Part shown: positions 18,425 through 49,120 of the stretch, in pieces
How positions within the stretch are numbered: position 1 is the stretch's first letter
Layout of the letters: every line of letters begins with the position of its first letter
Source: a virus
Taxonomy: Duplodnaviria > Caudoviricetes
Direction: 5' to 3' (one strand)
IMG/VR virus record: IMGVR_UViG_3300042549_002778
Coordinates: 1-62,167 of that record
Length of the DNA: 62,167 nt
Program-made: the position numbers and the translations under genes
The notes under the pieces: generated by a model
Databases searched by the model: none
Seen by the model: the letters and a program-made list of their open reading frames with translations, nothing else
Told to the model about the DNA's origin: nothing

Positions 18425-18661
18425 ATGGATTCCCAAATGATTATTAACCTCGCAGCGGGGGCGATTCTTGCTGCGATGGGATGGCTTGCGCGCGTTCTCT
18501 GGGAGGCTGTAAGCAAGCTTCGGGAGGACCTCCATGAGTTAGAAGTAGAGCTTCCAAGAAATTACGTCCGCAAGGATGAATTTTCCGACAACATGCGGGA
18601 GATCAAAGAGATGCTTGGCAAAATCTTTGATCGTCTGGACAACAAGGTGGATAAACCCTGA
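18425..18661 (+). CDS. Small protein with N-terminal TM helix and coiled coil
   Basis: Hydrophobic N-terminus; YVRKDEF...IFDRLDNKVDK. Confidence 0.7.
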   Translation: MDSQMIINLAAGAILAAMGWLARVLWEAVSKLREDLHELEVELPRNYVRKDEFSDNMREIKEMLGKIFDRLDNKVDKP

Positions 18662-19371
18662 TGTCCCTAAACTATACAACGTATGTCGCGCAAATAGCCA
18701 ACATCATGGCTGTTGATCCGACGACGCCGCAGTTTCAAACTATGCTCCCCGGCATGATCGACTACGGAGAGCAGCGCATTTATCGCGAACTTGATCTTCT
18801 CAATACGGTTACGAGAGATAATAGCGCGACGTTTACGAGCGGCAACCGCAACTTTACGCTGCCCACGACGGCAAACGGCAATTTTATCACCCTTCAGGGA
18901 ATAAATGCCATCACGCCTGCCGGGGCAATTGAAAGCAACGGAACGCGCAGGGCTTTGCAGCCTATAACCCGTGACTATTTAGATACGGTTTGGAATAGCT
19001 CTTCCGGTGCTTCACTGCCGCAGTATTTCGCGATGATTGATCAGTTCAATATCATCGTCGGGCCTTGGCCGAATGCCAATTACTCAGTTGAGGTAATTGG
19101 CACAATCAGGCCAAACCCTCTATCAGCGACAAATCAAAGCACGTTTCTGACGCAATATCTGCCCGATCTTTTTTTGGCCGCGAGCATGATCTATGCGACC
19201 GGCTATCAGAGAGATTTTGGCTCTCAGTCAGATAATCCCGCGCAGGCCGTCTCTTGGGAAAGCCAATACGAGCGGCTTTTTGCTTCGGCAAATGCTGAAG
19301 AGTTGCGTAAGAAATGGGCCGGCCCCGGCTGGACAAGTCAGTCTGCAATCGCCAACCCGCCGGTAAGATAA
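18661..19371 (+). CDS. Tail adaptor (tubular protein A-like)
   Basis: EQRIYRELD, P.YFA...GP.P...Y; precedes a nozzle-sized gene. Confidence 0.65.
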   Translation: MSLNYTTYVAQIANIMAVDPTTPQFQTMLPGMIDYGEQRIYRELDLLNTVTRDNSATFTSGNRNFTLPTTANGNFITLQGINAITPAGAIESNGTRRALQPITRDYLDTVWNSSSGASLPQYFAMIDQFNIIVGPWPNANYSVEVIGTIRPNPLSATNQSTFLTQYLPDLFLAASMIYATGYQRDFGSQSDNPAQAVSWESQYERLFASANAEELRKKWAGPGWTSQSAIANPPVR

Positions 19372-19372: not shown

Positions 19373-21418
19373 ATGCCCTTTGAAACCCTGCGTATCATTC
19401 CTAGTGTCGATGTTGAAAAGACACTGGCCGACAACGCGCAGGGCGTCTCTGAATCAAACTTTATTCGTTGGCGTGATAAGATCCCTGAGAAGCGTGGCGG
19501 ATGCCAGCTTTATACAAATACGCAGTTCAGTGGTTACGTTACTGATCTGCACGCATGGCAGGGATTAAACAGCCAAAGATATTTAGGCATTGGAACGACA
19601 ACAAACCTATACGCTTTCTTTAATAATAACGCAAAAGACATATCTCCCAGATTCAATACCGATGATGTGGCCCCCGACATATCATCAACGTCCGGCAGCA
19701 ATGTTTTTGAAATAACGGATGCGGTGTTTACGCCTGTTTCCACGTATTACACCGTTGTGTTTAATACGCCTGTTTCTATAGGCGGCGTGGTGCTAAGCGG
19801 CGCATATCCGATTTATTCCATTACCGGCGCAACATCTTATGAGATCATTGCACAGGCTGCGGCAACAGCTACTGTCGCTAACGGCGGGGCAGTTCCTGAA
19901 TTTGTCACGGCCAGCGGAAGCAGTTCTGTAACGGTCAATCTTGCTGATCATACATATCTCGTCGGTCAAGCTGTGTCATTCACCGTCCCTACAACGGTTG
20001 GCGGCATTGTTATACAGGGCACCTACATTGTCGAAAGCGTTGTAGCCGGTGTTTCATTTGAGATAATTGCCCAGAATGAAGCTACGTCGACCGACACTCA
20101 AGATATGAATGGCGGTGATCTTAACCTTACATACTGGATCACTGAAGCCCCATTGCCGCAGGGTACCGGATACGGGCTTGGCGGGTATGGCAATGGTGGA
20201 TATGGAACTGGCGTAACTCCGGCCAATCCAAATCCGGGAACGATCCTTGCTGCTGATGAATATTATCTGGATAATTGGGGCGAGACATTAATAGTTTCCC
20301 CGAAGAATTATCCAATATTTACGTGGTCTCCAATATCTGGCTACCAGAATGCGGGCGTCGTGGTTAACAGCCCGCTTCAGAATCTTGGCGCGTTTGTCGC
20401 CATGCCCCAGCAGCAAGTCATGGCGTGGGGATCAACATACACTGGCTTGAGTGACCCGCTTCAGATCCGGTGGAGCGATGTGGGTAACTTCAATGACTGG
20501 ACGCCTACAGTCACCAATCAGGCTGGTGGTTATCGTATACCAACCGGTTCGATTATACGGCGCGGTTTTCAGGGACCGTCGCAACAATACTGGTGGACTG
20601 ATATTGATCTCTACGTTGCCCAATACACAGGGCCGCCGTTTGTTTATGGGTTTAACAAAATAGGGACTGGATGCGGTCTGATTTCGCCCAGAGCCGTCGC
20701 ACAACTTGGTTCAACAGTTTATTGGATGAGCCAAAAGCAGTTTTTTATGACCAGTGGGTCAAATGCGCCGCAGCCGATACCGTGTTCTGTCTGGGATTTT
20801 ATATTCCAAAATCTTAATTGGAACGCTGTTAATAACGTAGAAGCTGCGCCAAATTCGCAGTTTAATGAGATCAACTGGTTTTTCCCAAGCGTTAACTCCT
20901 CCAACGGGGCAAACGACGCTTATATCTGTTACAACGTCCTATACAATGAATGGGACTATGGTTTCCTGTCGCGGACGGCGTGGATAGATCAGTCAGTTTT
21001 GACCACTTCTAACGGTCTATATGGACCAATAACTGCTGGCAGCGATGGATATATCTACATTCATGAAACCTCAAACGACAATGCTGGCGTTCCGATCAAC
21101 GCATCTTTCAAGACAGGTTATTTCTCCCTGACCAATGGAAATGATCTGGTTTTTGTTGATTGGGTGCTTCCTGATATGAAATGGGGTCAGTATTCACAGG
21201 CCCCGGATGCATCAATTCAGATGACGTTCAATGTCACTGATTATGCTGGTCAGACGCCAAAGGCATATGGTCCTTTCACATTCACGAAAGATACGCCGTA
21301 TATTGAGCCTAGATTCCGGGGTAGATTCGTTCAAATTGTCGTAGAAAGCACAGATCCCGGAAGCTTCTGGCGACTTGGCTCAATCCGATATCGCTTTGCG
21401 ACCAGCGGAAGAAGATAA
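19373..21418 (+). CDS. Tail nozzle / DNA stabilisation protein (tubular protein B-like)
   Basis: 681 aa beta-propeller-like; IRWSD, CGLISP, YWM; ends PRFRGR...WRLG..R....GRR. Confidence 0.7.
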
Positions 21419-22896
21419 TGACAGATAATGCTATTATCACGGCTGCTCAAAATACTGTGATTGCTATTAATAATCTTGGCAAGAGTCTTTCGGGGCTAAG
21501 CGGACCCACAGGGCCGACTGGTTCAATTGGGCCAACTGGGCCAGGTATTGGAGCTACTGGCGCAACTGGGGCAACGGGTCCAACCGGTCCAAGCGCAATA
21601 GGGCCAACCGGTCCAATCGGCCCGACCGGCGCAATAGGGCCGACGGGTCCAAGCGGAGGCCCAGTCGGTCCGACTGGCTCCACAGGTCCTACAGGTGCAA
21701 TGGCAACCATTTTAGGAACAGTAAATGTTTTGTCTTTTGGAGCTGTAGGTGATGGTGTAAATAATGATACAACAGCATTTTCTAATGCTATATCATCCAT
21801 ATCTGCCGGAACAGTAATTGTCCCTCCCGGTTTGTATTTAATAGATCCTATAACTATTCCTTCTTATATAAATTTAGAAGGGACGACTGTAGGGCCATTT
21901 GATGGTGTAAATCCAACATCTTCAACGACTGCGCCTACCATAATTGCAAATTCCGATACAGCGTCTTTAATAACTTTGGATGGATATAAAAGCTCTGTTA
22001 TCAACCTATTGTTTTATTACAAAACAACTGGAGCAGCGGCCCAAGTAGATCCAACATCATCAACACCCACAAGCTTAAATCCTACAATATTAATGACATC
22101 TGCTGGAGGGCATTTTGTCAGTAACTGCACATTTGTAAACAGTTTTACTGCCATTAAAATAGAAGTTGGTCGCTGCACTGTTCAAAATTGTTTAATTGGG
22201 GCTTATTATCGCGGTATTTTAGTTGATGGAGCTTTAGATTGGGTAACAATTAGTAATGTTCAAAATCAAGTAATGTGGGATACTTATACTGGTCTTTCTT
22301 ATCCTCAAAATATTGATGCTTGGGTATTAAATAATGGAATTGCGTTAGAAGCGAAAAAATGTGATAGTTTAATAGTTAGTAATTTTAGTGTTTATTCTAG
22401 ATATTGCGGAATAGCATTTGAAGGATCTCTTGGAGATAATTGTTATGGTCGAGGAACAAATATTGATTTAGATTATGTTGCATATGGTGTATTAGCTACA
22501 ACAACAAATAATACCGGTGGTGGATTTAAAATCACAAACATGGATGTCGGCGCAAATATGTCTGGCATCGGAACTGTTGGGCAAGTTTCTGTTTATCTTC
22601 CGTCTGGTTCTGCTGAACCTGGAAATATTATATGGGAAAACGGCTCAATACGCGGAACTTGGGCATTTAATAGTGGCAAACCAGAAGTAAATGACGGAAG
22701 TATATGGATAAATAATATTAGAGGCATAGACGGAACTTATACCGTCGGTCAGTTGCCGTCGGCTTCATTATCCGGTTCTGGTGCAAAATTATTCGTAACT
22801 GATGCTTCTGCGACAACATTTGCCTCAATTGTAGTTGGTGGCGGGTCGAACAAAGTGCCAGTTTATTCGGACGGAACAGATTGGAGAATCGGATAA
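21418..22896 (+). CDS. Collagen-linked tailspike (pectate-lyase-like beta-helix)
   Basis: Short GPT block; [16 protein letters not shown]; C-terminal [12 protein letters not shown]. Confidence 0.8.
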
Positions 22897-23429
22897 TGCC
22901 GCTTTTAAAAGGCAAAAGTCAGAAGACGATATCCTCAAATATCTCTGAACTGATGCATACCGGACGCCCCCAGAAACAGGCCATAGCCATAGCTTTAGAC
23001 GCTGCGCGACGGTCAAGAGCCTCTGGCGGCGCGAATAAAAAGGTGTTTCATGGCCCAATCGTCACGCCAATCCCCGGAAGGACTGATCGGCTTCCTATCC
23101 ATGTGTATTCTGGAAGCTACGTCATTCCTGCGGATATTGTTTCCGGTCTAGGCGAAGGCAATACGCTGGCTGGCTACGAGGCCATAAAGCGTATGTTTGG
23201 CCATCATCTGAAATCCAAATATGGCGTTCGCGGCTCCTATCACGAAAGCAGGGACATTGTTCCTGTTATCGTTGCTGGCGGCGAATACATTTTGACCCCG
23301 GAAGAGGTGGAGATTGCGGGGAATGGTGATCTTGATAACGGTCACGCCATTCTGGATGCGTTTGTAAAATCACAGAGGCTCAAATTGAGAAAGAAGCTGG
23401 CAAAGTTACCGGGCCCGGCGAAGGATTAG
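22896..23429 (+). CDS. GG-motif protein with duplicated G(S/E)Y(V/I) module; candidate processing enzyme
   Basis: [16 protein letters not shown]...QKQAIAIAL, then RASGG, then GPI..PGRTD.LP...GSYVIPADIV and GGEYILTPEEV. Confidence 0.7.
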   Translation: MPLLKGKSQKTISSNISELMHTGRPQKQAIAIALDAARRSRASGGANKKVFHGPIVTPIPGRTDRLPIHVYSGSYVIPADIVSGLGEGNTLAGYEAIKRMFGHHLKSKYGVRGSYHESRDIVPVIVAGGEYILTPEEVEIAGNGDLDNGHAILDAFVKSQRLKLRKKLAKLPGPAKD

Positions 23430-23430: not shown

Positions 23431-23901
23431 ATGGATATGGAACTGCAAAAGTGCCCTGACGTAAGATTGGCTGAATTAGACGATCTTCCAGAACTGATGC
23501 GTTTGACAAAGATAGCCTGCGACGAAGACGCCCAACATAGTTATGACGCCGAAAAAGTTCTTGGCGTTTTGCGCCTTCACTTTGAAAAGCGCGGCGGTGT
23601 CGTTGGCGTCATTGGCGACAGGGGCAAGGAATTAAAAGCCTACATCATTATGGTGATAAACGAGGTTTGGTATAGCCGGGACTCTCATGTCCAGGAACTA
23701 AGCCTGTTTGTTGCGCCCAATCATCGTAGGTCAAACTACGCCAAACAGCTTATGCAGTTTAGCAAGCAAACGTCAGATGTCCTTAATCTGGACCTCACGA
23801 TTGGCGTTTTGTCTAACGAAAGAACGGCTCCTAAAGTCCGTCTGTATCAGCGTCAGTTCCCATCGGCGGGAGCTTTCTTCGTTTATTCTCCTAAGAATTA
23901 A
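23431..23901 (+). CDS. GNAT-family acetyltransferase-like protein
   Basis: VRLAELDDL...LFVAPNHRRSNYAKQL...RLY. Confidence 0.75.
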   Translation: MDMELQKCPDVRLAELDDLPELMRLTKIACDEDAQHSYDAEKVLGVLRLHFEKRGGVVGVIGDRGKELKAYIIMVINEVWYSRDSHVQELSLFVAPNHRRSNYAKQLMQFSKQTSDVLNLDLTIGVLSNERTAPKVRLYQRQFPSAGAFFVYSPKN

Positions 23902-23912: not shown

Positions 23913-26900
23913 ATGGGCAGCAAGGGCAGCGGCGGTGGTTCAAACCAAATGGGGTTCCAGGCAACTACGTCGACCTATACGCCAAACCCTGAAGCCATGG
24001 CGGCATATCGTAACGCCCTTGGAATGGCCGAAAACGTCGCTCAAATTCCATTTGAGCAATATCAGGGTCAAATGCTTGCCGGCTTTACGCCAGATCAGTT
24101 GGCTGCTTTTCAGGGCACGCGAGAGATGCAGGGCATGGCCCAGCCTTACATCAACGCGGCGGCTGGAGCGGTTAACAGGTCGCTTATGATGGCTGATCCC
24201 CGCAACTTCACGCCGGCTGCTCTCCAGCAATATTACAATCCATATCAGCAGAACGTCATTGAATCGACGCAACGCATGATGGAACAGCAGAACGCCCAGC
24301 AACAGGCTGACCTGACTGCCCGTGCTATTCAGCAGGGCGCGTATGGCGGCGATCGGTCTGGCGTTGCGCGCGCAGCCCTTATGGGTCAGCAGGCTCTTGC
24401 AAATCAGCAAGTCCTTTCTGGTCTTCAGCAACAGGGATACCAGCAAGCGGTTAGCCAGTATAATCAGCAACAGCAGCAGGCTATTGGCGCTGCGCAACAA
24501 GGCGCTTACAGCCTTGGTCAGCTTGGACTACAGGGTCAGCAGGCCGCCCTTCAGGGCATTCAGGCCCTGCTTGGCACAGGCGGGATGCAGCAGCAGCTTG
24601 GCCAGCAGCAGCTTTCTGCGGCTTACAATCAGTTCATGCAGGCGCGTGCTTACCCGTATCAGCAGGCCAATTTCTATGCTGGCATTGCGTCTGGCATTGC
24701 GCCAAACATGGGCGGCACAACCAATACTTTTGGCATCGGCAATAGCCAGACACAGCAACAGCAGGCGTCTGGCGGCGGTGGTGGCGCTGGCTTGATTTCG
24801 TCTGCGCTTTCGTTCTTGCCGATGCTTCTAGGCGGGTCGGATCGAGATGATAAAACTGATATCAAATATATCGGAAGGCACCCGGAAACCGGCGAAAGGC
24901 TTTATGAGTATCGCTATAAGGGAGATCCCAAAACCTATCCCAAGGTTGTTGGCCCAATGGCGCAGGACATCGAGAAAGACGAGCCTGAGCGCGTCCATGA
25001 GATTGGTGGCCATAAGGTCGTTGAGGGTCTTGGGCACTTAAAGCCCAGCGAAAGAGAAGGTCGCGCCGATGGCGGCGGGGCTTATGGCTCTTATAATGTC
25101 GATCCGTATGCCTATCAGCAGCCGGCTTATCAGGCTGACCAGCGATTTGATCCCGGATTCCAGACGGGGCTTAATGCCGTCATTGATCCGGCTATGGCGA
25201 ATGAGATCGCCCGCAGCCGTTGGGTTTCTCAGAATCCAGATCAAAGCCAGAGCGATCAGGCTGTTAACGAGCAGATGCAATACCGTAACCCGGAATTTAA
25301 TCTGTTCCCGTATTTTCAGGAAGGCGAGCATTCGCAGAGCCCGTTTGACGGCAACGCAGAACGTCCACAGATGTATGCCGACGGCGGTGGAGTTGGCGGA
25401 TTTGGCGATCTGATTAAAGCCAAGTCGCCGTTTGGTGCGGCCAATGAATATATTGAGGCCCTGCCTATTACTCCCGGCAAGGCTCATATCCCTGAGCCTC
25501 CCAAGATGAATTGGCTTCCGGGTCTTCCGGGTGGCGGTCCTTCGTCCAGTGGCGGGGGCGGCGGTGGCGGCGGCGGCGGATCGCCCAAGCTCCCCAAGCT
25601 AGGCGGTTCAAAGGCGGCTTCTGCCGGTGCGCACGCCCCGGATGCGGCTATGGCTGGTGAACATGCGGCGGCGGCTGCTCCGGCAACCCATGATGCGGCG
25701 GCTCATGCTCCGGCGATGGATATGGGCTCCGCTCCTGCGCCTGCCATGGATGCTGGTCTTGGCGGTATGGGTGGAATGGGTGGCGGGCTGGAAAATATCT
25801 TTTCCGGCCTTGGCGGCATTCTCCCGATGTTTAATCGTGGCGGTCGCGCGCCCAAGGCGGATGGCGGCGCGGGCGGAATGGGTTCCAGCGGCTTCGCGGG
25901 CGCTCTTGGTCCGGGCGCTGGCGCAATCCCCGGCGTGATTGGAGAGCCCGGCAGCGGCACGCTTGGGTCTCTGACTTCTGATATTGGCGGCGCTCCCACC
26001 AAGGGTCCAATGGGCGACATGTCCTATAAGGGCTGGCTTGGCCGCGCTATGGAGCTTGATCCCGGTCGTCAGACGACGCCGGAAGAACAGGGTCAGCCTT
26101 CGCTTCCCAAACCCGGTTCTCAGCCGCCGCGGCAGTGGATGCCGGGCGAGTCTCAAAGCAAGGTGATTGGAAATCAAAACGAAGGCATTAACCCCATGCT
26201 TATGATGGGCATGGGCAAAATGGGTAGCGGGCTTGCCCTTGCCTCTATCATTGGCCAGCAGCAGGCTCAGCAAAACGCCTCCACAATGCAGAAAGAGGCG
26301 CAGGCCAAGCGCGCGGAGATCCTTGCCAAACCTCAGACGCCGGCTGGATATTCCACTTCTCTGGCGAGCAATATTGTCAATCCCCGCACGGGCCTGTTTA
26401 ATGTAAACTATGGCACGTATTACATGCCGCCTTACGCGGCTGGCGGTCGGGTCGGTAAGGCTAATGGTGGAGGCTTTAATTACGGCCCCTCAATGCAGCT
26501 TTACTACGACATGATTAATTCTGGTAAAATGACCCCGGAGGCTGCGGCTGGTTACGCCGGAAACTTCTCATATGAGGCTTCCGGTCGCGGTAAGAACCAG
26601 ATCAATCCTGCGGCTGTCGAGGGCGGTCAGCCCTTTAACAAGGCTGGCATTGGATATGCGCAATGGACGAATGCTCATCGCGGAAATCTTGGTCGCCACA
26701 GCGACTTCCTGAATTTTGCAAAACAAACTGGTCAGCCGTGGAATACGCATCTTGCCAACCTTGATTATTTTAACAAGGAGCGGTCTGAAAATCCGTTTGT
26801 TATGCGTGCTGATGAAAAGGTTCAGGCACAACCAACAATTCGTGAAGCCGCTACTCATGTCATGCAGGACTATGAGCGTCCGGGTGCGGCGGAGGCGGCG

Positions 26901-29900
26901 AAGTCTCTGCATCATCGGATCGGCATGGCTGAGCATATTGGCGACATCGCGCAGGCAGGAAATCCGTTTGAGGGCACTGCCCTTGCTGAGGAATCGGCTC
27001 GCAGTAATCAGGTGCTTGCTGAAGATCATCCTGAATTTACGACCGGCGGCCAGTTTGCGGAAGGTGGTCGTGTTTACATGGCGCGCGGTGGCGGCTTGGA
27101 TGAGCGCACTTCGGCCCTTGCCAATCGGGCAATGAACTATTTCCTTAGCAAAGGCTACTCAAAGGCTGCTGCTGCGGGAATCGTTGGAAATCTTATCCAT
27201 GAAAGCGGTGGTCATTTAAATCCTGCCGCTCATGGCGATTTAAGTCTTGGCGCGGCGCGTTCGGCTTGGGGCATTGGTCAGTGGCGTGAGAACAGGTTCA
27301 GAAATCTTCAGAATTTTGCAAAGGCCATTGGCCGGGATTGGAAAGATTTTGATACGCAGCTTGCCTTTGTTGATCGCGAGCTAAAGTCTGATTACCGGAA
27401 TGCCTATCGAGGGATCACAAGCGCCCGGACGCCGCAAGAAGCGGCTGCGCAGATGATGATGTATTACGAAATCCCGCAACATCGCGTTGCCGGAGTTCCG
27501 TCTACATATAGGGGCTGGGGTCAGCGCGCCAATCTTGCTTCGATGCTTGGCGGTCAGGAATACAGCCCGACTTCAGCCGGTTCCTATGGCGCTCCTGCGA
27601 CGGCACCGATCAGAACATTGGCTGTCCGTCCCCTTACCGGGGAGCGTGCGGGGGTTGTCGCGTCGGATAATCAGCCGACTCCTGCTCCTGCGCCCGTTCG
27701 TGCGGCTGCGCCTGCCTCGCCTTATCCCGGAAGCAACCTGAACCGGATCAATCCCGCCGACCCGTCTGGACCTCTTTTGGGAGATCCTGCGCCAAAGGTT
27801 GTCCCGGCGACCGCCCCGGCTGAGCCAAAGCCCGGATTTAATCTGGCCAGTTTAAGCCCCATCAGCGCGGCCTATGCCAGTGATCGTGGTGTTTATCCGC
27901 CGTCGCGGTTTGAAGGCCCGCCTATGTCGCGTGGGCCGGCTGAGCAGCGTATTATGAACCGTGGGCTTGATGTCGGTTATGGCCCTGATCACGACACGTA
28001 TGGTCCGGGAATTTCTGAGGTTGAGGGTATCCGCACGCAGTTTGGCCAGACGCCTTATCAGAGGTCCATGCTGGCTGAAACTCCGTATGCCCAGACCATG
28101 GTTGGCGCTCCGCTAAGCCCATTTGACGATGGTTCTGGATTTAGCGAGGAAAAAGAAGTCGTCTCCGCTGACCGTAAAGAAGCGCCCAAGGCTCCCGCGT
28201 CCAAATCTGGAGAGGGTCCATATTGGGGCGATTACCGTGATTATGAGCCGTGGAAATCTGACCCCATCGGTGGGTTCTTTGATGAGTTAACCGGAGATCG
28301 CCCGCATTCCGCGCATAAGGGCGCGTCAATGTATGACACTGGCGCTGGCGAGACGCAGGGCGGTGGTTTTGATATTCTCAAAGAATTGGGCTTTGCCGAT
28401 GGCGGCGCGGCTGAGACGGATGCGGATAAAACACGCAAACGCCCCGGTGTAAGCAGCACGTTTGATCCTCTTGGGTCATTGCCGGAGAGATTGGCTGCTG
28501 AGCAGTTGCAGCGGATGTCAATCAACCCGAATACGCCCGCGAAGCGCCCCGGCTGGGGAAGTTCTTTTGACACGCTTGGTTCGTTGCCAGAGCGACTTGC
28601 GATGGAGCAGCGCGCCAAAATGGCGGCGGAACGTCCCGTCTACCGTCAAGATCCGAATTTCCGACCGACCTATCATGCCAACATGGGTCCGATGGTATCG
28701 GAAATGACGCAACGTCAGCTTCCTGATTGGAATCCAAACATTCCGGCTCAGCAGGGCGGTTATCCTTCAACCATTGGTCAAATGTATCCGGTTGAAAGTG
28801 TCGTGGCTGAGCAGGCTCCGCAGCCTACCCCCGCATCTGGCGCAGGGGCAGAGATGCCCGCTCCGGCGGCTTCTCAGGGTGCCCGTTCGGCCCCGCAAGC
28901 CGGTTCTCAAGGCGAAAATGGTGGCCCGTATTGGGGTGATTATCGCGATTACGAGCCGTGGCGCTCCGATCCGATTGGATTGGCTTTTGACCAGATTATG
29001 GGTGAAAAGCCGCATTCTTCCCACAAGGGTGCGTCAATGTGGGATGTTGGCGGTGGTGAAACCGCTCCCGCAAGCCTTGGCGACCTGTTCAGGCAGTTTG
29101 GTGGTCGCGTAAAGATGCAGGATGGCGGTGATCCGCTTGCTGGCCTTGATTCTGAATTGTTCAGTCAGGAGCCCATGGCAGATGATCTTGCCGGGTTTTC
29201 CCCGCAGGCGCTTGCTGAAGCTACTGCGCCAGAATCGGAAGAGCCAATTGTAGCCACTGACAGGCAGGAACAGCCTGTTCAGCCGGCGGCAAAACAGGGC
29301 CTTGGTGGTCTTCGTTCCCCCATTACGGGACAGCCCATGGAGTTTGGTCCCTTGTCGCAGGCCATGCTTGCGGCTGGCCTTGGCATGATGGCTTCGGATC
29401 GCGTTAATCCGCTTCAGGCGATTGGCGAAGGCGGATTGCGTGGACTTGAGTATTATCAGGAAGCAAAAGCTGGCGAGAGAGCAAGAGAAGCCGCTAATGA
29501 GCGTCTTAGCCATCAGCGCGCCAAAGAACGCGCTGACGAGCTTTATCGTCAGAACGCTCTTGAGCTTCGCCGTAATCTTCTGGAAGCCCAAGAAAGAGCC
29601 AGGATTGCAAACGAAAAGCGTCTGGAGTTGCAAAGTAGCCCTGATTACAAGGCTCGCGTTGCTCAAGAAGCGGCTGAAGCCAAGAAACTTGCTGACATTG
29701 GAATCAAAACTCAAGAAGATGCCATGTCGGCGCAGGGCAATATTTCGCGTCTTAGCAACTTTGAAAAGGCTCTTGAAGAAGCGCGTTTCAGGACCGGCGC
29801 AGGGGCTTCTGTTGAGCTTGCGCTTCGTCGTGGCGCGGCTGCTCTTGGCTATGGAGACGAGGAAGCCGTCCAGCTTATGGGTGACTTTGAGTCTGGAGCA

Positions 29901-30311
29901 ATCAAAGATTTGCTGACAAACGCTGGTGGATCGCTTGGTGCTGGTATCTCCCGCTCTGACGCTGAAACCCTCGCCAAGATGTCCACAAGTCTGTCCAAAT
30001 CTCCGGCTGAAAACCTTAGCGCCATTCGCGCGGCGAAAGCGGTTGAACAGCGCAAAATTGATATTGCTGAGTTCCAGCGGCAATATCGTGAAGCCCATGG
30101 CGGGGTTCTTGATGGAAATTATTACAATGAGCTTTCCAAATGGGCGGCTGCGCATCCGATAACAGCTACATTGGGACAGACAAAATCCAAAGAAAGCAAG
30201 TCTTCAGGACAATCGGAATCAGCTCCTTCGTCTCAAAAAGTGATCATTAATCCTGTGACAAAAGAGCGTATGAGACTGAACGCTGCGGGCACTGGATGGG
30301 AGAAATTCTAA
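23913..30311 (+). CDS. Large internal virion/DNA-ejection protein with S74-type autocleavage domain and two phage tail lysozyme domains
   Basis: Gln-rich N-terminus (YNPYQQNVI); SDRDDKTDI...GPMAQDIE; AAAG..GN...E...GI.QW twice; 11 GG motifs. Confidence 0.8.
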   Translation: MGSKGSGGGSNQMGFQATTSTYTPNPEAMAAYRNALGMAENVAQIPFEQYQGQMLAGFTPDQLAAFQGTREMQGMAQPYINAAAGAVNRSLMMADPRNFTPAALQQYYNPYQQNVIESTQRMMEQQNAQQQADLTARAIQQGAYGGDRSGVARAALMGQQALANQQVLSGLQQQGYQQAVSQYNQQQQQAIGAAQQGAYSLGQLGLQGQQAALQGIQALLGTGGMQQQLGQQQLSAAYNQFMQARAYPYQQANFYAGIASGIAPNMGGTTNTFGIGNSQTQQQQASGGGGGAGLISSALSFLPMLLGGSDRDDKTDIKYIGRHPETGERLYEYRYKGDPKTYPKVVGPMAQDIEKDEPERVHEIGGHKVVEGLGHLKPSEREGRADGGGAYGSYNVDPYAYQQPAYQADQRFDPGFQTGLNAVIDPAMANEIARSRWVSQNPDQSQSDQAVNEQMQYRNPEFNLFPYFQEGEHSQSPFDGNAERPQMYADGGGVGGFGDLIKAKSPFGAANEYIEALPITPGKAHIPEPPKMNWLPGLPGGGPSSSGGGGGGGGGGSPKLPKLGGSKAASAGAHAPDAAMAGEHAAAAAPATHDAAAHAPAMDMGSAPAPAMDAGLGGMGGMGGGLENIFSGLGGILPMFNRGGRAPKADGGAGGMGSSGFAGALGPGAGAIPGVIGEPGSGTLGSLTSDIGGAPTKGPMGDMSYKGWLGRAMELDPGRQTTPEEQGQPSLPKPGSQPPRQWMPGESQSKVIGNQNEGINPMLMMGMGKMGSGLALASIIGQQQAQQNASTMQKEAQAKRAEILAKPQTPAGYSTSLASNIVNPRTGLFNVNYGTYYMPPYAAGGRVGKANGGGFNYGPSMQLYYDMINSGKMTPEAAAGYAGNFSYEASGRGKNQINPAAVEGGQPFNKAGIGYAQWTNAHRGNLGRHSDFLNFAKQTGQPWNTHLANLDYFNKERSENPFVMRADEKVQAQPTIREAATHVMQDYERPGAAEAAKSLHHRIGMAEHIGDIAQAGNPFEGTALAEESARSNQVLAEDHPEFTTGGQFAEGGRVYMARGGGLDERTSALANRAMNYFLSKGYSKAAAAGIVGNLIHESGGHLNPAAHGDLSLGAARSAWGIGQWRENRFRNLQNFAKAIGRDWKDFDTQLAFVDRELKSDYRNAYRGITSARTPQEAAAQMMMYYEIPQHRVAGVPSTYRGWGQRANLASMLGGQEYSPTSAGSYGAPATAPIRTLAVRPLTGERAGVVASDNQPTPAPAPVRAAAPASPYPGSNLNRINPADPSGPLLGDPAPKVVPATAPAEPKPGFNLASLSPISAAYASDRGVYPPSRFEGPPMSRGPAEQRIMNRGLDVGYGPDHDTYGPGISEVEGIRTQFGQTPYQRSMLAETPYAQTMVGAPLSPFDDGSGFSEEKEVVSADRKEAPKAPASKSGEGPYWGDYRDYEPWKSDPIGGFFDELTGDRPHSAHKGASMYDTGAGETQGGGFDILKELGFADGGAAETDADKTRKRPGVSSTFDPLGSLPERLAAEQLQRMSINPNTPAKRPGWGSSFDTLGSLPERLAMEQRAKMAAERPVYRQDPNFRPTYHANMGPMVSEMTQRQLPDWNPNIPAQQGGYPSTIGQMYPVESVVAEQAPQPTPASGAGAEMPAPAASQGARSAPQAGSQGENGGPYWGDYRDYEPWRSDPIGLAFDQIMGEKPHSSHKGASMWDVGGGETAPASLGDLFRQFGGRVKMQDGGDPLAGLDSELFSQEPMADDLAGFSPQALAEATAPESEEPIVATDRQEQPVQPAAKQGLGGLRSPITGQPMEFGPLSQAMLAAGLGMMASDRVNPLQAIGEGGLRGLEYYQEAKAGERAREAANERLSHQRAKERADELYRQNALELRRNLLEAQERARIANEKRLELQSSPDYKARVAQEAAEAKKLADIGIKTQEDAMSAQGNISRLSNFEKALEEARFRTGAGASVELALRRGAAALGYGDEEAVQLMGDFESGAIKDLLTNAGGSLGAGISRSDAETLAKMSTSLSKSPAENLSAIRAAKAVEQRKIDIAEFQRQYREAHGGVLDGNYYNELSKWAAAHPITATLGQTKSKESKSSGQSESAPSSQKVIINPVTKERMRLNAAGTGWEKF

Positions 30312-32434
30312 TGGCAAATGAACTTCCTCCCATTCCTGAAGGATTTGAACTTTACAAGGGAGGGGATGAATCTCTCCCAGAAATTCCAGAAGGCTTTCAG
30401 TTATCAACTGAAGAAAAACGACCTGAAGGCGGAGTTGGTGAAACCATAGCAGCCGGACTTCGTGGCGTTCGTGAAGCCATACCGTTTGGCCAAGATATAG
30501 GTGCGGCTGCGACTGCTCCATTTACTGGCCGTTCGTTTGGTGAAGAAAAGCGCCATCAAATGGAGAGAGATGTTCAGCTATCTAAAGAACATCCTTATGC
30601 TTACGGCGCAGGCATGGCCACTGGAATTGGCGCGCAATTGCTTGCGCCAGAAGTCGGCTTGGTCAGGTCTGGAATGGGATTTCCAGCTAAAGTTGCTGCC
30701 GGTAGTGCAGAGGGTGCGTTATACGGATTAGGTGAAGGCGTAACACCTGAAGAAAGACTTCAAAGCGCCAAAACGGGTGCTTTATTCGGTGCTGGCGCAA
30801 CCGCTGGGCTTACTGCGGCTGGAAAAGGTCTTGAGGCTGCTGGCGCTGGCGCAAGTCGTCTTTTTAGGGGTCCACAGGCGCAGGCGGAGCGGGCCATTGG
30901 TGAAGCTCTTGAAACTGACATTCGTCGTGAATCTGAAAGACTTACGCCACAAGAAATCGAAGAAGCAGTAAAACGCGGCCAGCCAATTCTTCCTGTTGAT
31001 GTTGGTGGTGGCACTCTTGCTGGGGAGCTTCGCAAAGCGACAAATATTTCCCCGGAAGCAGAAGCTACAATATATGGGCCGCTGAAAAAACGATATGTTG
31101 AGCAGCAGAAACGGTATCAGCAGCACCTTCAGGGCCTTATGGGGCATGATTTAGATGCGGCTGGTATGCAGGAGGATCTTCGCGAAATTGCCCGTGGTAT
31201 CAATCGCCCGGCCTATCGCGCGGCATATGATTCTCCAAATGCTCAAAATATCTGGAATCAGGAGCTTGCAAATATTGTCAATGCACCTGCGGTCCAAAGC
31301 GCCATTGAACCAGCAATGGTCAAGATGAAGAATAAAGCCGTCCTTGGCGAAGGGCCAGATATAGAGCCGATATTTGTTTCTGATACCAAAGGCAATGTAA
31401 GGCAGGGATTGCCTAAATCCCTTGAGTATTGGGACAACGTAAAACAGGCCATGGATGACAAGATAGGCGCTTTAAAGCGAGCCGGAGATTCATCTTGGGT
31501 GGATATAAATAAAATCAAAAACAGGCTAGTCGCGGCTCTTGATAAGTCTGTTCCAGAGTATGCGAAAGCTCGCTCTGGCGCAGCCATGATGTTTGGCGCT
31601 GACAATGCATTTGACGCGGGGCTTTCATTTCTTGGCACCAAAAGCACGTTAAATTCTGCTAAAATGAAAAAACTTGTTGAGTCCATGAAGCCAAATGAGC
31701 GTGAAGTATTTGCTCATGGCGTTGCGGCTAACATGCTTTCACGTATTCGCGACCGCAGAGAACGATCAGATATATCGAAGCTTTTTGACTCCCCCGAAGA
31801 GCGTGAAAAGATTTCCATGGCCCTTGGGCCAGAAAGAGCGGCAAAGTTTGAGGCTTTCCATCGTGTAGAAAACATAATGGATAGAGCCTATCAGGCTGTG
31901 GTATCCAATTCTACGACTGCCAAACAATACGCGCGATCTCAGGATCAGGGATACGCAAGAAAGATTATAGGAAGGTTGCCTTATATGGGAGGCGAGGCCG
32001 GTTTGGCTGGCGCATATTCGCACTCTCTATCTCAGGCAATACTTCCTGTTCTACTGGATTTGACCGGGACGACAATAAAGCACGTTTCTGATAAACGCAG
32101 AATGGCTTCTGTTGAGAAGCTTGGGGAAATGCTGGTTTCTCCCGATCCAGCCGTCAGGCAGCAAGTCATGGATATGATTTCTTCCAAGCCGTCTGCAATG
32201 CAGAAGCTGCGTAACATTGATGCATCCTTGCGCAGGATGGCAATTGTTGGCGGCGTTGAGCTAAATAGAGAAGAAAGAAAGTCTGGTGGCAAGGTTTACC
32301 CTGCCAAGCGCCTTTCATTGCTGGAAAAGGCTGCGCTTAAAGCTCATAATGACCTCGCAAATGGTTCTAGGCCACTTATGGAGATGTCGGACGAGCAAAT
32401 CGCCGCCGGCCTACATGACGCTAAAGAAGGATAA
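30311..32434 (+). CDS. Internal virion/ejection protein
   Basis: Gly/Ala-rich amphipathic N-terminus, helical body, RKSGGKV near the C-terminus; start overlaps the upstream stop. Confidence 0.7.
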   Translation: MANELPPIPEGFELYKGGDESLPEIPEGFQLSTEEKRPEGGVGETIAAGLRGVREAIPFGQDIGAAATAPFTGRSFGEEKRHQMERDVQLSKEHPYAYGAGMATGIGAQLLAPEVGLVRSGMGFPAKVAAGSAEGALYGLGEGVTPEERLQSAKTGALFGAGATAGLTAAGKGLEAAGAGASRLFRGPQAQAERAIGEALETDIRRESERLTPQEIEEAVKRGQPILPVDVGGGTLAGELRKATNISPEAEATIYGPLKKRYVEQQKRYQQHLQGLMGHDLDAAGMQEDLREIARGINRPAYRAAYDSPNAQNIWNQELANIVNAPAVQSAIEPAMVKMKNKAVLGEGPDIEPIFVSDTKGNVRQGLPKSLEYWDNVKQAMDDKIGALKRAGDSSWVDINKIKNRLVAALDKSVPEYAKARSGAAMMFGADNAFDAGLSFLGTKSTLNSAKMKKLVESMKPNEREVFAHGVAANMLSRIRDRRERSDISKLFDSPEEREKISMALGPERAAKFEAFHRVENIMDRAYQAVVSNSTTAKQYARSQDQGYARKIIGRLPYMGGEAGLAGAYSHSLSQAILPVLLDLTGTTIKHVSDKRRMASVEKLGEMLVSPDPAVRQQVMDMISSKPSAMQKLRNIDASLRRMAIVGGVELNREERKSGGKVYPAKRLSLLEKAALKAHNDLANGSRPLMEMSDEQIAAGLHDAKEG

Positions 32435-43302: not shown

Positions 43303-43866
43303 ATGACCGACGATTGGGACAAACCCACGCCTATCAGGAACACCACGATTGCTGACGTTTTGAAGGACGGAAGCAAGCGGGATTACCTGAACGATGAGTT
43401 CAAGAGACTTGCTGACAGGGGAAGACAGGCAGAACAGGCTGTAGCTCGATACCTTGAGCGTAACGGGTTTGAGGTTCGGTTGCCTGAGAAGAAGATACGT
43501 GAGAACATCGAAGACAGACACAAGTTCACTGATGAGGGCGACTTGTTCTACCGCAAAGTTGGTAGTGAAGGTCACTGGCATAGAGTGGAGGTCAAGAGTC
43601 ACGATTACCGGACGCCGCCGTTTACTTGCATTGCAGACTTCCCGTTTAAGGATGTGATACTTGAGCGGGAACATCGGATGAAAGAATCGTTCCCATATGT
43701 GTATAAGTGGGTGATGGTTTCGAGTGATTTCAGATATGCTGCGGTTACGTCGTTGGAAAGCTGCATATACTGGTATAAAGAAACAAGAAAAAAGAGAAAC
43801 TACGGAACGACTGAGACAGATTGGTATGTTCCTGTCGGTCATACCAAGATCATAAAATTGGGATAG
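43303..43866 (+). CDS. PD-(D/E)xK nuclease-like protein
   Basis: G..AE..V..YL...GF; GDL...VEVKS. Confidence 0.65.
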   Translation: MTDDWDKPTPIRNTTIADVLKDGSKRDYLNDEFKRLADRGRQAEQAVARYLERNGFEVRLPEKKIRENIEDRHKFTDEGDLFYRKVGSEGHWHRVEVKSHDYRTPPFTCIADFPFKDVILEREHRMKESFPYVYKWVMVSSDFRYAAVTSLESCIYWYKETRKKRNYGTTETDWYVPVGHTKIIKLG

Positions 43867-43871
43867 GTCAG

Positions 43872-45359
43872 ATGGAGCTAAGACACTATCAGGCGGAGGC
43901 TATTCGTAACCTTCGCCAAGCCATAGCAAACAAAGAGAAGCCTGTTTTGTCGGCCCCAACGGGATCTGGCAAGACGCTGATTGCTTCGGAGATTTTTTCG
44001 TTGGCGAGGGCCAAGGGGAAGCGGGTTGTATTTGTCGTGCCATTCCTGTCACTGATTAATCAGACATGGAAGGCTTTTGAACGCGCCGGGATTGATGGTC
44101 GGGACATGGGGGTGATTCAGGCATCCCATGAGCTAACCGATTACTCAAAGCCGGTTCAGATTGCGTCGGCGCAGACTGTGGAGCGCAGGACGCTGTTGCC
44201 AAAGGCTGACATTGTGATTTTCGATGAATGCCATATAAAGAGGAAAATATACAGCCGCTGGATGCATGAGTCCCCGGATGTGTATTTTATCGGCCTGTCC
44301 GCCACGCCTTGGGCTGTCGGCATGGATGACATCTGGACGCGGATGATCATTGTTTCGACGCTGAGCGACCTGATTGAGGAAGGCCATTTATCGAATTTCC
44401 GTTACTACGCGCCGGCCCAGCCTGATTTATCCAAGGTCAGGACGCGGTTAGGCGATTATGTCGAAGCGGATCTTGAGAAGGTGATGGGTCAGGCTGACCT
44501 GATTGCTGATATTGTGAATACATGGCGAGAGAAAGCCAACGAGCGCCCGACGTTCTGTTTCTGCGTAAACCGTCGCCATGCCCAAGAGGTTCAGCATCAG
44601 TTTCTCAGGGCCGGAATCCCGGCTGGCTATGTTGATGCCTATACCCCGGTTGAAGAACGGGAGGCGCTGGTTGAGCAGCTTCGGCGGGGTGATCTGAAGG
44701 TTATTTGTAATATCGGGACAATGACCACGGGCGTTGATGCGCCGTTTGTGTCCTGCATTATCTTGGCTAGGCCGACCAAATCAGAGATGCTGTTTATCCA
44801 GATTGTGGGCAGGGGGCTGAGAACAGATCCGACGAAGGATCACTGTCTGATTCTGGATCATTCGAACACGGCGCTTAACTTGGGCCGCCCGGATGAGATC
44901 TTCCACGATCATTTCGTTTCGGGTAAGGCTGCGGAAGCGGGTGATAAGGCCAAGAAGGAAAAGGAAGAGAAAAAGCCGCGCCTTTGTCCGCATTGCAAAT
45001 TTGTGATGCTTCCCAAAGAAAAGGAGTGTCCATCCTGCGGATTTGTGATGCCGCCCCCGCAGAGTGAGATTGAGATCGCAGCCGGGGAGCTTTCGGAGCT
45101 TGGTCGCAACGGAGCCAGAGGCAAGGCTACGAAGGATGAGAAGCAGCGGTTCTTTAGTGGTTTGCTTTGGTATGCCCGTCAGCAAGGGTATAAAGTGGGT
45201 TGGGCAGCGAGGATCTATCGGGAGAAATTTGGCGTCTGGCCGCGAGGGTTGACAGACAAGCCAGACTTCCCTGATAGCGTTGTGTTCAAGTTCATTGAAG
45301 AGCGGAACCGGGCTTGGGTTAAATCCAGAAGAAATTCAATGAATGCGAGTCAAATATGA
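43872..45359 (+). CDS. SF2 DExH helicase with C-terminal Zn finger (RadD/YejH-like)
   Basis: LRHYQ, APTGSGKT, DECH, SATP, TGVD.P, QIVGRGLR, CPHC...CPSC. Confidence 0.92.
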   Translation: MELRHYQAEAIRNLRQAIANKEKPVLSAPTGSGKTLIASEIFSLARAKGKRVVFVVPFLSLINQTWKAFERAGIDGRDMGVIQASHELTDYSKPVQIASAQTVERRTLLPKADIVIFDECHIKRKIYSRWMHESPDVYFIGLSATPWAVGMDDIWTRMIIVSTLSDLIEEGHLSNFRYYAPAQPDLSKVRTRLGDYVEADLEKVMGQADLIADIVNTWREKANERPTFCFCVNRRHAQEVQHQFLRAGIPAGYVDAYTPVEEREALVEQLRRGDLKVICNIGTMTTGVDAPFVSCIILARPTKSEMLFIQIVGRGLRTDPTKDHCLILDHSNTALNLGRPDEIFHDHFVSGKAAEAGDKAKKEKEEKKPRLCPHCKFVMLPKEKECPSCGFVMPPPQSEIEIAAGELSELGRNGARGKATKDEKQRFFSGLLWYARQQGYKVGWAARIYREKFGVWPRGLTDKPDFPDSVVFKFIEERNRAWVKSRRNSMNASQI

Positions 45360-46690: not shown

Positions 46691-47213
46691 GGCTGGCAGA
46701 AAGCGCAAGGTTGGTGAGAGATACCCCGCTGGCCAGATACGCCCGCAGGATGATGGCCCATCGCCGGCTATTGTGAAGCGTCTCCGCAGTGCTGCGATTT
46801 TGGGCATGGCTGATCCACATTGGGGATCTGTCGCTGGCCTTTGGTATTTGCAGAAGGTGATAGACGATTCAGAGTATGAAGCGGCCAAGCGGTTCGGGGA
46901 TCTGCACGCGCAATATATTGGCGTGATCGGTGGCCCTAGACCGCCCAAAACATCAACTGGCGAGCGGATGAGCAAGTCCCAGAATGTGGATGTAGACACG
47001 CATCAGGGCGATCTGGAAGCCCAGCGGCATATAGCCGTGATGACCAAATACAATGATGTCCATACGTCCCTGTTGATGCTCAATCCTCTGACGGAGGCGG
47101 AACTGATAAGGTTCTGCGCCATGCCGGGAGAGACGCCAACCGGGCATGAGGGAATTATCAGAATCCGTGCTGGATTGCGGGCTTTGGCTGATTTGTGGAA
47201 GATCAGCAAATAA
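46683..47213 (+). CDS. Hypothetical, possibly regulatory, protein
   Basis: AGRKRK N-terminus; helical C-terminus RAGL.ALA.LW. Confidence 0.65.
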   Translation: MARAGRKRKVGERYPAGQIRPQDDGPSPAIVKRLRSAAILGMADPHWGSVAGLWYLQKVIDDSEYEAAKRFGDLHAQYIGVIGGPRPPKTSTGERMSKSQNVDVDTHQGDLEAQRHIAVMTKYNDVHTSLLMLNPLTEAELIRFCAMPGETPTGHEGIIRIRAGLRALADLWKISK

Positions 47214-47240
47214 AAAAATGCCCCGCGTCCGGGGCAGTCT
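47212..47240. terminator. Hairpin terminator between convergent units
   Basis: aaaaaaa-tgcccc gcgtcc ggggca; U-tract on the minus strand. Confidence 0.55.
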
Positions 47241-47376
47241 CAGGGAGGAAACTTAAAATACTTTCAAAAACCAATCTCGTCAATCTTGATTTATGATTTA
47301 AGTGAATGTAAAAAGATGAAGAACCATTCGGTTCTCCTTTTCAAACTTTCTTCGGGCAGGCCCCTGTCCTGAAGAG

Positions 47377-47419
47377 CGCCCCGCCAGCGTAGCTCCATTC
47401 CGCTGGTGGGGCCTTTTTC
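47377..47419 (+). terminator. Long hairpin with U-tract
   Basis: gccccgccagcg...cgctggtggggc followed by cttttt. Confidence 0.55.
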
Positions 47420-47621
47420 ATTTACGATATTTTTCGTATACAGCTTTCGCCTTGGCAAAGTGACCAAGGGTCTCAGACTCAATATCAGCCTCCGCAAACG
47501 GCTTGATTGCATCCAGCAGTTCATCAAACTTAATCTCTAGCTTGGCTATTTGCCAACGTAGTTCTGTTTCTGCCGGGTTGTTTTTCTTGACGCTGGTCAC
47601 GTCATAGATCGTCCGTTTCAT
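47418..47621 (-). CDS. Hypothetical protein
   Basis: Leftward mini-operon. Confidence 0.6.
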   Translation of the reverse strand: MKRTIYDVTSVKKNNPAETELRWQIAKLEIKFDELLDAIKPFAEADIESETLGHFAKAKAVYEKYRK

Positions 47622-47628
47622 GTTTTGG

Positions 47629-47829
47629 CTACTCTTGAATAGTCTGCTGGTTTTTCAAAAAGCGTATTTTTTTATGGAGCAATTCAATCGTCTCTTTCTG
47701 TTGGCGCAAACCCATAGCCGCGCCAAGCATAAGAGCTTGAGCTAGTTCGAGCTTATATTCCTGATCGACTTTATATGTTTCAAGCTGCTTGATCAGGGCT
47801 GGGATTTCAATTTTTGGATCATTCGTCAT
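47629..47829 (-). CDS. Hypothetical protein
   Basis: Leftward mini-operon. Confidence 0.6.
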   Translation of the reverse strand: MTNDPKIEIPALIKQLETYKVDQEYKLELAQALMLGAAMGLRQQKETIELLHKKIRFLKNQQTIQE

Positions 47830-48019: not shown

Positions 48020-48109
48020 GTTCTTTCTCCATTCCGGGTTCCCCGGCGCTACGCTACCAACGCTGTCGGCATTCCGGTTTTTAGCCCGCGCGAGCCTCAA
48101 CCTTCTCAG

Positions 48110-48190: not shown

Positions 48191-48209
48191 TGACGAATGG
48201 AGCAGTCAA

Positions 48210-48413: not shown

Positions 48414-48435
48414 AAGCAACCAAGGAGATTATGAA

Positions 48436-48825: not shown

Positions 48826-48840
48826 GAATGGAGAGCAGTT

Positions 48841-49107: not shown

Positions 49108-49120
49108 AGGAGAATCTGAT

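Follow-up and report, generated by a model that had tools for sequence, protein, structure and literature searches.

A doubled Gly-Gly motif at the module borders of a giant podovirus ejection protein: a seam of exchange and a possible processing site

The internal virion proteins (IVPs) of podoviruses are the closest described systems to the protein that we present here. T7 gp16 (IVP-D), the phiKMV-type IVPs and SU10 gp20 are, like it, large capsid-packaged proteins that are encoded beside the tail genes. The IVP module of podoviruses opens with a gene of the acetyltransferase family, T7 IVP-A included, and its proteins "variably host" tail lysozyme domains (Hardies 2016, PMC4819975); the ejection proteins of SU10 include a transglycosylase (PMC9509320). 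Both features of the podovirus module, the opening acetyltransferase-family gene and the variably embedded muralytic domains, are found again in the IMG/VR record IMGVR_UViG_3300042549_002778, a genome of 62,167 bp from an uncultured phage, which has direct terminal repeats and is 100% complete by CheckV (this whole stretch of DNA is what we will call the window). In this genome, a single open reading frame (ORF) without internal stop, at 23913..30311 on the + strand, encodes an internal virion or ejection protein of 2132 aa, P0001, in which, unlike in the podovirus IVPs, the functions are fused in one chain together with an internal S74 domain and two lysozymes. Ejection proteins with swappable cell-wall enzymes are already known. 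What seems to be new is a conserved 13-residue seam that marks the swaps, is found at nearly every module border of P0001 and occurs in unrelated giant packaged proteins. This doubled Gly-Gly motif is the point where the relatives of P0001 exchanged, gained or lost modules, and we tentatively propose that it is also a site at which the protein is processed.

Three other described systems have to be considered for comparison. In adenovirus and African swine fever virus, which are large DNA viruses, a cysteine protease encoded by the virus cuts the structural polyproteins at GG-X sites, recognizable by a hydrophobic residue that stands a few residues ahead of Gly-Gly. A gene for such a protease was not recognized among the larger ORFs of the window, and the resemblance to P0001 consists of a very short pattern only. 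In the Tal protein of the lactococcal phage TP901-1, proteolytic processing takes place at a Gly-rich sequence, NGGGNSGGGD, which stands just ahead of the first cell-wall-degrading domain and whose cleavage removes the lytic part (PMC11409707). Tal of TP901-1 and Tuc2009 and P0001 have in common a Gly-rich motif directly before a cell-wall-degrading domain of a virion protein, but Tal is an external tail-tip protein of siphoviruses, and it has one site, of another sequence, with no R-V-G core and no 8-residue doubling; besides, the Tal motif is cleaved, whereas cleavage at the P0001 motif is a proposal that we make from sequence. Finally, the polyvalent proteins of phages and conjugative elements are very large multidomain proteins that are delivered with the DNA and in which lysozyme and PF07486 domains occur (Iyer 2017, PMC5512222). 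Their processing into units has been proposed, with an embedded MPTase domain as the enzyme (PMC5512222), a domain that was not found in the window, either by Pfam or by a HExxH scan of its large ORFs other than P0001. P0001 differs from the polyvalent proteins in that it carries envelope-directed modules only (no effector domain beyond the muralytic and S74 domains was found in it with Pfam, so that it does not itself count as polyvalent), while a neighboring protein of 1192 aa does qualify. As for the junction motif, it is not described for the ejection proteins of T7, phiKMV or SU10 in the available text of PMC4819975 and PMC9509320, the main text of PMC5512222 uses neither "glycine" nor "linker", and no description was found elsewhere in the literature covered, subscription journals and supplements lying outside that coverage.

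The label of podovirus ejection protein appears well founded for P0001, because homology to phrog_4287 goes together with a gene order that places it beside an acetyltransferase and tail genes. Indeed, aa 15-371 match phrog_4287 with an E-value of 2.2e-31, over profile positions 8-382 of 392; the name of this family, "DNA ejection protein", is an annotation label and not an experimental function. Directly 5' of the P0001 gene is a GNAT acetyltransferase gene (23431..23901, + strand; phrog_1249, with weak matches to PF13508 and PF00583), which is found immediately upstream of the ejection gene, in the same gene order, in 11 of the 12 related loci L002-L013. It is itself directly preceded by a small conserved gene (22881-23429). 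Further upstream, together with fibre genes, lies the gene for a structural, nozzle-like protein of 681 aa (19373-21418), and before it that for an adaptor of the SU10 type (18661-19371, PF24175), which this genome shares with SU10. On the downstream side come a 712-aa protein (30296-32434) and then, further away, a fibre gene and an endolysin gene. Among 5.8 billion proteins searched, 153 homologs of P0001, of 1172-3731 aa, were found, and the 120 of them that were listed are the basis of the family counts given below. In particular, P0002 (2144 aa) aligns with residues 1-2083 of P0001 at 67.5%. We used alignments of 25 homologs (A1), of 13 lysozyme sequences (A2) and of 46 sequences (A3), and the 29 closest homologs (P0002-P0030) for the comparison of BLAST match ends.

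P0001 is a chain of modules, and we are highly confident of their succession: a Gln-rich helical N-domain, an S74/ICA domain, three low-complexity spacers, two diverged PF18013 lysozymes, a middle region and a C-terminal module. The domains were called by running Pfam on motif-delimited segments of the protein, and all of the features are given here on the + strand. The N-domain (aa 1-308, 23913..24836), which starts with MGSKG and ends with the hydrophobic LSFLPMLLGG, defines the family, most of the invariant columns of A1 falling within it. Its model, made with AlphaFold2 (AF2), is mostly helical, with one long helix at aa 149-265 (predicted local distance difference test, pLDDT, of 33-82), and Gln makes up 19% of the N-terminal part. 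It is followed by the S74/ICA domain, of the self-cleaving chaperone type (PF13884; aa 309-372, 24837..25028), for which we predict a Ser309/Lys314 dyad and a cut between Gly308 and Ser309. Tail lysozyme 1 (aa 864-1009, 26502..26939) and tail lysozyme 2 (aa 1070-1191, 27120..27485) match PF18013 with 70.3 and 106.3 bits, respectively, for a cut-off of 28.2, and each of them starts 10-11 residues past a paired motif. The second one, within a model of aa 800-1240, reaches a pLDDT of about 90 with its first helix from aa 1064, while the first one is less well modelled (pLDDT 55-72, first helix from aa 858). The best Foldseek match of lysozyme 2 is the tail cell-wall-degrading enzyme gp13 of phi29 (3csq, E 4e-5; 3csr, TM 0.71 by target). 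The Glu and Ser of its IHESGG sequence (E1097/S1098) are invariant in A2, and the residue of lysozyme 1 that aligns with E1097 is the Glu of FSYEASG; this conserved Glu of the two lysozymes is presumably catalytic. Because the two domains are 32% identical over 123 aa (E 5e-9), they are old paralogues and not a fresh duplication. The middle region is long and holds the two copies of a 60-aa repeat, 62% identical (E 4e-28), each of which ends in a GG motif: R1 (aa 1435-1498, 28215..28406; GPYWGDYRDYEPW...HKGASM...) ends in a single motif, and R2 (from aa 1671, 28923..29129) in a paired one. The C-terminal module (aa 1740-2132, 29130..30308) carries a conserved LSQAMLAAGLGMMASDRVNPLQAIGEGGL segment and is common to P0004, P0005, P0009, P0028, P0030 and others; it matches no Pfam family and, as a single-sequence query in IMG/VR, it returned no close relatives.

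The GG motifs come in a single and in a paired form. The single ones are RADGG (aa 384-388, 25062..25076), whose G387 and G388 are invariant in both A1 and A3; YADGG (aa 488-492, 25374..25388), whose G492 is at least 90% conserved in A1, and at whose site homologs carry the paired form, such as SGGRVGMADGG in P0004-6; and FADGG (aa 1494-1498, starting at 28392), at the end of R1. The paired ones are FNRGGRAPKADGG (FNRGG-RAPKAD-GG; aa 640-652, 25830..25868), with G643, G644, G651 and G652 invariant in A1; YAAGGRVGKANGG (YAAGG-RVGKAN-GG; aa 841-853, 26433..26471, the KANGG part being at 26457), with G844, G845, G852 and G853 likewise invariant, where exchange takes place ahead of the muralytic cassette; FAEGGRVYMARGG (FAEGG-RVYMAR-GG; aa 1048-1060, 27054..27092), before lysozyme 2; and RQFGGRVKMQDGG (RQFGG-RVKMQD-GG; aa 1727-1739, 29091-29129), at the end of R2. 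The sequence-only reading from which this work started had described an ejection protein with this domain order, with seven GG motifs and with four motif pairs spaced by 8 residues. Each of these points holds: the identity of the protein through its PHROG match, its upstream GNAT gene and its tail-gene neighborhood, the domain order through Pfam, and the motifs through the 2132-aa ORF itself, in which all seven are in place and the GG starts of all four pairs are exactly 8 residues apart.

We compared these patterns with 5000 shuffles of the whole of P0001, in which Gly accounts for 13.1% of the residues, and with shuffles within 100-aa blocks. The bare pattern xGGx4xGG occurs 4 times for a shuffle mean of 0.41, a number that 5/5000 whole-protein and 21/5000 block shuffles reach. 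The more specific GGR[VA]x4GG also occurs 4 times, for a mean of 0.006, and [YFMRK]A[DENR]GG 7 times, for a mean of 0.19; none of the 5000 shuffles attains these numbers, whichever way the shuffling is done. Across the family, strict paired motifs were counted 168 times, in 81 of the 120 homologs (39 have none), and their consensus, [YF]-A-D-G-G-R-V-G-[RYMF]-A-D-G-G, is a doubled phi-A-D-G-G unit, with R at 64%, V/I at 57%, A at 52%, D at 42% and aromatics at -3 and +5. In the 120 homologs, successive GG runs are 8 residues apart in 176 cases, where shuffles give 35.8 and the neighboring spacings 78-117. Outside the N-domain, A1 has few invariant columns, and among them are the glycines of RADGG and those of the pairs at 643/651 and 844/852.

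What is conserved in the motif is the peptide. Indeed, the four paired copies within the P0001 gene have 19-23 of their 39 nucleotides (nt) in common, and since their synonymous codons differ, the constraint acts on the amino acid sequence; on these same grounds we rejected, for the copies inside the gene, the idea that the motif owes its existence to a repeat of the DNA. Between genomes, the approximately 20 of 30 nt that are shared at the motif possibly play a role in exchange. AF2 gives a pLDDT of 28-35 at paired motif 2 and of 27-31 at motif 3, as opposed to about 90 in lysozyme 2, and the first helices of the lysozymes begin 4-5 residues after the motif. The motif looks like a linker-like short linear motif and not like part of a fold, and it is modelled as an unstructured linker, 4-26 residues ahead of the first element of the next domain.

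What the motif marks can be seen from the comparison of homologs, in which the domain that follows it is not always the same. Five muralytic Pfam families (PF18013, PF07486, PF01832, PF18896 and PF05838) start 5-26 residues after the same motif: it is PF18013 in P0001, Hydrolase_2 in P0003, Glucosaminidase in P0007, SLT_3 in P0010 and GH108 in P0012, and in P0004 it is a domain that Pfam does not recognize. At the nucleotide level, the identity of 10 loci to the window is of 9-30/36 upstream of the motif, of 19-24/30 in the motif and of 5-12/36 directly downstream of it, which is the random level, so that identity drops to random exactly at the 3' edge of the motif. Similarity at the protein level breaks there too: the N-terminal BLAST matches of 6 of the 29 closest homologs (P0003, 9, 12, 13, 14 and 15) end at residues 853-856 of P0001, at the second GG of the pair 844/852. 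When the 120 proteins are taken together, the distinct internal match ends are most frequent at the last Gly of the motif (22, for a background of about 4), and 79 of 3026 match ends fall between positions -3 and +6 relative to it, while the mean of the null was 36.9 and its maximum, in 200 trials, 52. Whole units can also be gained or lost between motifs. Compared with P0003 and P0008, P0001 has an extra [lysozyme + motif] unit at aa 854-1060 and an extra [repeat + motif] unit at aa 1499-1739, both ends of which are, in each case, at motifs; the single cassette of P0008 and of P0003 aligns from paired motif 3 (residues 1045/1048 of P0001).

Because varied muralytic families and the drop of nucleotide identity meet at the same motif, the cassettes are real units of exchange. 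The check that the sequence-only reading had asked for, whether indels among homologs are bounded by GG motifs, came out in favor of this through the breaks, the family swaps and the differences in copy number that are found there. Its other statement, that each muralytic domain lies in a cassette of its own, is correct as far as it goes, but the second cassette, which extends to the FADGG of aa 1494, holds far more than a lysozyme: on the C side of lysozyme 2 the next motif is about 300 residues away. The motif therefore bounds the muralytic domain on its N side only, and it is not specific to muralytic cassettes.

The motif is not restricted to ejection proteins either. Searched as a DNA pattern, the exact GGRVGxADGG is found in 77 IMG/VR loci, with 67 hits in ORFs of at least 250 aa, 29 of which have an N-domain of the P0001 type. 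Those without it include a few members of the P0001 family with a truncated N-terminus (L077 and L092, for instance) and, in GC-rich DNA, a few frames that are spurious; the remaining proteins include ART-PolyVal, GP88 and DUF7178/Hydrolase_2 proteins. The phage of P0001 itself offers an example, since the phi-A-[DN]-G-G unit is also present in its own polyvalent protein, which is the protein of 1192 aa mentioned above (57460..61038, + strand; DUF6321 and ART-PolyVal) and is encoded right after the portal gene. It has CADGG, RADGG, YANGG and FADGG, and after three of these four motifs the sequence DPYxx[VI]Q[QE]AA[KR] comes within 2-12 residues. A similar arrangement, RADGGG-x6-VDPYAYQQ, can be seen after the S74 domain in the ejection protein. 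When the 24 other large ORFs of the window were scanned, the pattern was found in the polyvalent protein, in a 329-aa ORF (61080-62069) that follows it and has the looser KKGG forms YKKGGRV and MKKGGQV, and in the 681-aa nozzle-like protein, which has one weak match, VANGG; it was found in none of the other 20 (20/24 being the count of this same scan). That large phage proteins of unrelated families have the motif suggests that it serves as a general punctuation mark in proteins packaged in the capsid.

Two side observations can be added here. In the 712-aa protein encoded downstream of P0001, GGVELNREERKSGGKVYPAKR lies about 45 residues from the C-terminus; its KVYPAKR part is conserved in L097, and it is possible that the 712-aa and the 329-aa proteins are further cargo proteins with motif-like elements. 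In another IMG/VR locus (L064:10735-11123), octapeptides resembling RADGGRV(G/V) follow one another in tandem through a frame of 447 aa, in which the paired pattern is hit 23 times; this frame may encode a genuine repeat protein, or be a spurious one in repetitive, GC-rich DNA.

A cut within P0001 is predicted in the first place at the S74 domain. PF13884 matches the segment aa 309-388 at aa 309-361, with 26.5 bits for a cut-off of 22 and over profile positions 1-57 of 58; run on the whole of P0001, it scores 19.3 bits, below this cut-off. The AF2 pLDDT is of about 90 over aa 310-370. In the putative dyad, S309-D-R-D-D-K314, both S309 and K314 are at least 90% conserved and D310 is invariant in A1, and 81 of the 120 homologs have the SDxxxK signature. 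The domain resembles in this respect those of endoNF (S911/K916) and MyRF (S587/K592), where the Lys of the dyad is at position +5 from the Ser and the cut occurs just before the Ser (PMC8326128), and, as in MyRF, it is internal, with a long C-terminal part after it (PMC8326128). In phage fibres, by contrast, S74 is C-terminal, is discarded and follows a triple beta-helix, whereas in P0001 it is followed by 1760 residues and preceded by a helical region, so that the placement found here is not that of the fibres. By analogy with endoNF and MyRF, a cut between Gly308 and Ser309 would probably detach the N-terminal 308 residues. An N-domain is detectable in 102 homologs; S74 is the first element after it in 71 of them, and 28 lack S74 and pass straight to a GG motif. 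These counts are no evidence for cleavage, and the idea that S74 and the GG motif replace each other was rejected, as the homologs with S74 have the motif right after it; since the motif directly follows S74 wherever S74 is present, the domain appears to be an optional insert.

In the reading that we prefer, S74 would cut P0001 after trimer formation and free the N-domain from the remainder of 1824 residues. The GG motif would then act not as a passive spacer but as a sequence-specific recognition element, most likely a proteolytic site at or between the glycines, where a protease, possibly encoded by the host, would cut the polyprotein into separate modules, lysozyme-bearing fragments included, in the head or in the periplasm. 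Upon ejection, the lysozymes would open the peptidoglycan and the hydrophobic C-terminal module would help to build the channel. Contrary to the architecture itself, of which we are nearly sure, this processing role of the motif is a tentative proposal that we would not call probable. What argues for it is that the motif is found at nearly every domain border, that it is sequence-specific across unrelated families, that a domain of the autoprotease type is, by prediction, already present in the chain, that Tal of TP901-1 offers a precedent and processing has been proposed for the polyvalent proteins, and that the motif coincides with natural termini. Indeed, 7 of the 120 homologs end naturally at ...LFD[IV]FG or similar, which corresponds to the first-GG residue of the fused proteins (...LFRQFGGRVKMQDGG in P0001), and in the locus L005 the next gene encodes the remainder, that is the C-terminal module, as a separate product that starts without the motif. 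The presence of the motif only where two modules are fused is in keeping with a linker or a cut site and speaks against a signal that belongs to either module.

Several points weigh against processing. No protease was recognized in the window with PHROGs, Pfam and NCBIfam run on the larger ORFs, the smaller ones having been partly scanned, and no HExxH motif was found in the 24 large ORFs other than P0001. A 337-aa ORF upstream of the capsid gene (838-1851) has no PHROGs, Pfam or NCBIfam match, and its nearest named Atlas cluster is that of a scaffolding protein (score 0.87), which is a lead only. Among the described systems, virion proteomics of the podovirus phiRIO-1 gave no clear sign of processing (PMC4819975), and the N4 virion RNA polymerase (vRNAP) is packaged unprocessed (PMC5512222). 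In the motif itself, no position but the glycines is invariant, and GG is preceded by D, N, R, A, E or F in P0001, and two sites 8 residues apart are unneeded for cleavage. Moreover, cutting at the motifs would not release lysozyme 2 as a free enzyme of domain size, because no motif follows on its C side for about 300 residues. The split-gene evidence is thin: it consists of the seven C-termini and the one locus L005, and 20 further metagenome loci gave no new split-gene form. Finally, the majority of the similarity breakpoints, all but the 79 of 3026 mentioned above, are not at motifs.

Alternatively, the S74 cut could be the only one, with the rest of the chain staying whole and the motif being a structured joint, for instance one made of D-G/G-G turns, that keeps the modules from misfolding together while the chain threads unfolded through the tail channel and refolds module by module. 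Part of the conservation of the motif would then come from its travelling with the modules, its approximately 20 of 30 shared nt serving relaxed recombination. The unprocessed proteins of phiRIO-1 and N4 (PMC4819975 and PMC5512222) and the lack of a protease gene among the larger ORFs of the window speak for such a hinge just as they speak against a cut. The AF2 models, in which the motif is a linker, its absence where the modules are separate genes, as expected of a linker, and the fact that it forms an island of 63-80% nucleotide identity between flanks that otherwise cannot be aligned also go in this direction. However, nothing would oblige a passive linker to retain R, V, A, D and two aromatics in families that are unrelated, the differing synonymous codons place the constraint on the peptide, and the nearby poly-Gly and Gly/Ala-rich stretches indicate that P0001 also uses plain spacers. 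We regard the uncut hinge as possible, if rather doubtful. A docking or packaging signal, through which the portal, the scaffold or the inner core would bind the motif and load or order the cargo of the procapsid, is an improbable explanation. It would account for the motif being in several unrelated families of large phage proteins and for its distribution in the window, where a large residue followed by A-[DN]-G-G is found in the ejection and polyvalent proteins, looser or weak forms are found in the 329-aa and nozzle-like proteins, and most of the large ORFs have none; yet the stand-alone versions of the modules do not have the motif at their ends (7/7 C-termini, and the second gene of L005), and one copy per protein would suffice, while there are copies at nearly every domain border. 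As for the GG pairs being a by-product of chance in a Gly-rich, low-complexity protein, the poly-Gly runs of P0001 and the fact that all GG spacings from 3 to 9 are about threefold above shuffles would lend themselves to it, but this origin is refuted by the shuffles, block shuffling included, by the prominence of spacing 8, by the motif columns that are invariant across 25 homologs and by the return of the exact 10-residue motif in 77 viral loci.

These readings differ in what they imply. If the motif is a cut site, the injected cargo follows a polyprotein strategy, which changes the annotation of giant ORFs and the count of the proteins delivered per virion. If it is a hinge or a recombination seam, it provides a searchable rule for module boundaries, which would help to excise soluble virion lysins and to predict domain limits in unannotated giants. 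A broader version of the processing proposal is that phi-A-D-G-G would be a Gly-Gly processing signal shared by the cargo of many uncultured tailed phages, namely ejection proteins and polyvalent anti-defence proteins. This cargo would be made as polyproteins, from which a protease of the phage or of the host would release the working modules. We consider this extension unlikely; if true, phages would have their own equivalent of the GG-X processing that adenovirus and African swine fever virus use, with the motif doubling as a shuffling seam.

The relatives of P0001 were also looked for outside of the metagenomes. Among cultured phages, there is no close homolog, and the matches are partial and weak. 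The 735-aa "tail lysozyme" of the Pseudanabaena phage Pam5 shares the lysozyme and C-terminal parts of P0001 and is devoid of any phi-ADGG motif; its neighbor Pam5_11 looked by eye like a stand-alone N-domain, a candidate that was dropped with an hhalign probability of 0.4%. A group of phages that had been picked up through the Gln-rich region (L014-L018) is a different group, with little of the motif, and was set aside. The profile of A1 found no relative in the species-representative bacterial and archaeal genomes, and it gave no prophage or host clue. Against the PDB sequences, the same profile matched artificial poly-Gly linkers only, and no solved ejection protein; the model of the N-domain, compared with PDB folds, had no match at an E-value of 0.001 or below, so that no likeness to T7 gp14-16 or to other solved ejection proteins was found with either the PDB sequences or the N-domain model. 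The stretch of P0001 that gave these linker hits, the only ones of the PDB sequence search, is at 25530-25580, where a run of about 10 Gly is found and where residue 553, G555, K559 and P561 are conserved in homologs.

Two further features of the P0001 sequence can be mentioned. N-terminal acylation is known for the membrane-penetration proteins of some animal viruses. The MGSKG start of P0001 (23913-23930), with its Gly at position 2, and the adjoining GNAT gene raise the idea, and this is an idea only, that the ejection protein could be acylated at its N-terminus; among the homologs, position 2 is Gly in 90/120 and Cys in 7/120. A second short motif, [IV][VA]AxD, is represented in P0001 by VVASD (aa 1248, 27654-27668) and IVATD (aa 1779, 29247-29261), often with Pro/Glu before it and Arg/Pro after it. 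It is found in 33 of the 120 homologs, with 77 occurrences in total for 36.8 in shuffles, which is an enrichment of only about twofold. Elsewhere in the window, the replication and packaging region (43821-54512) carries two DNA methyltransferase genes (45356-46690 and 53334-54512), a dCTP deaminase-like gene (48977-49603) and a sigma-factor-like gene (50172-50927).

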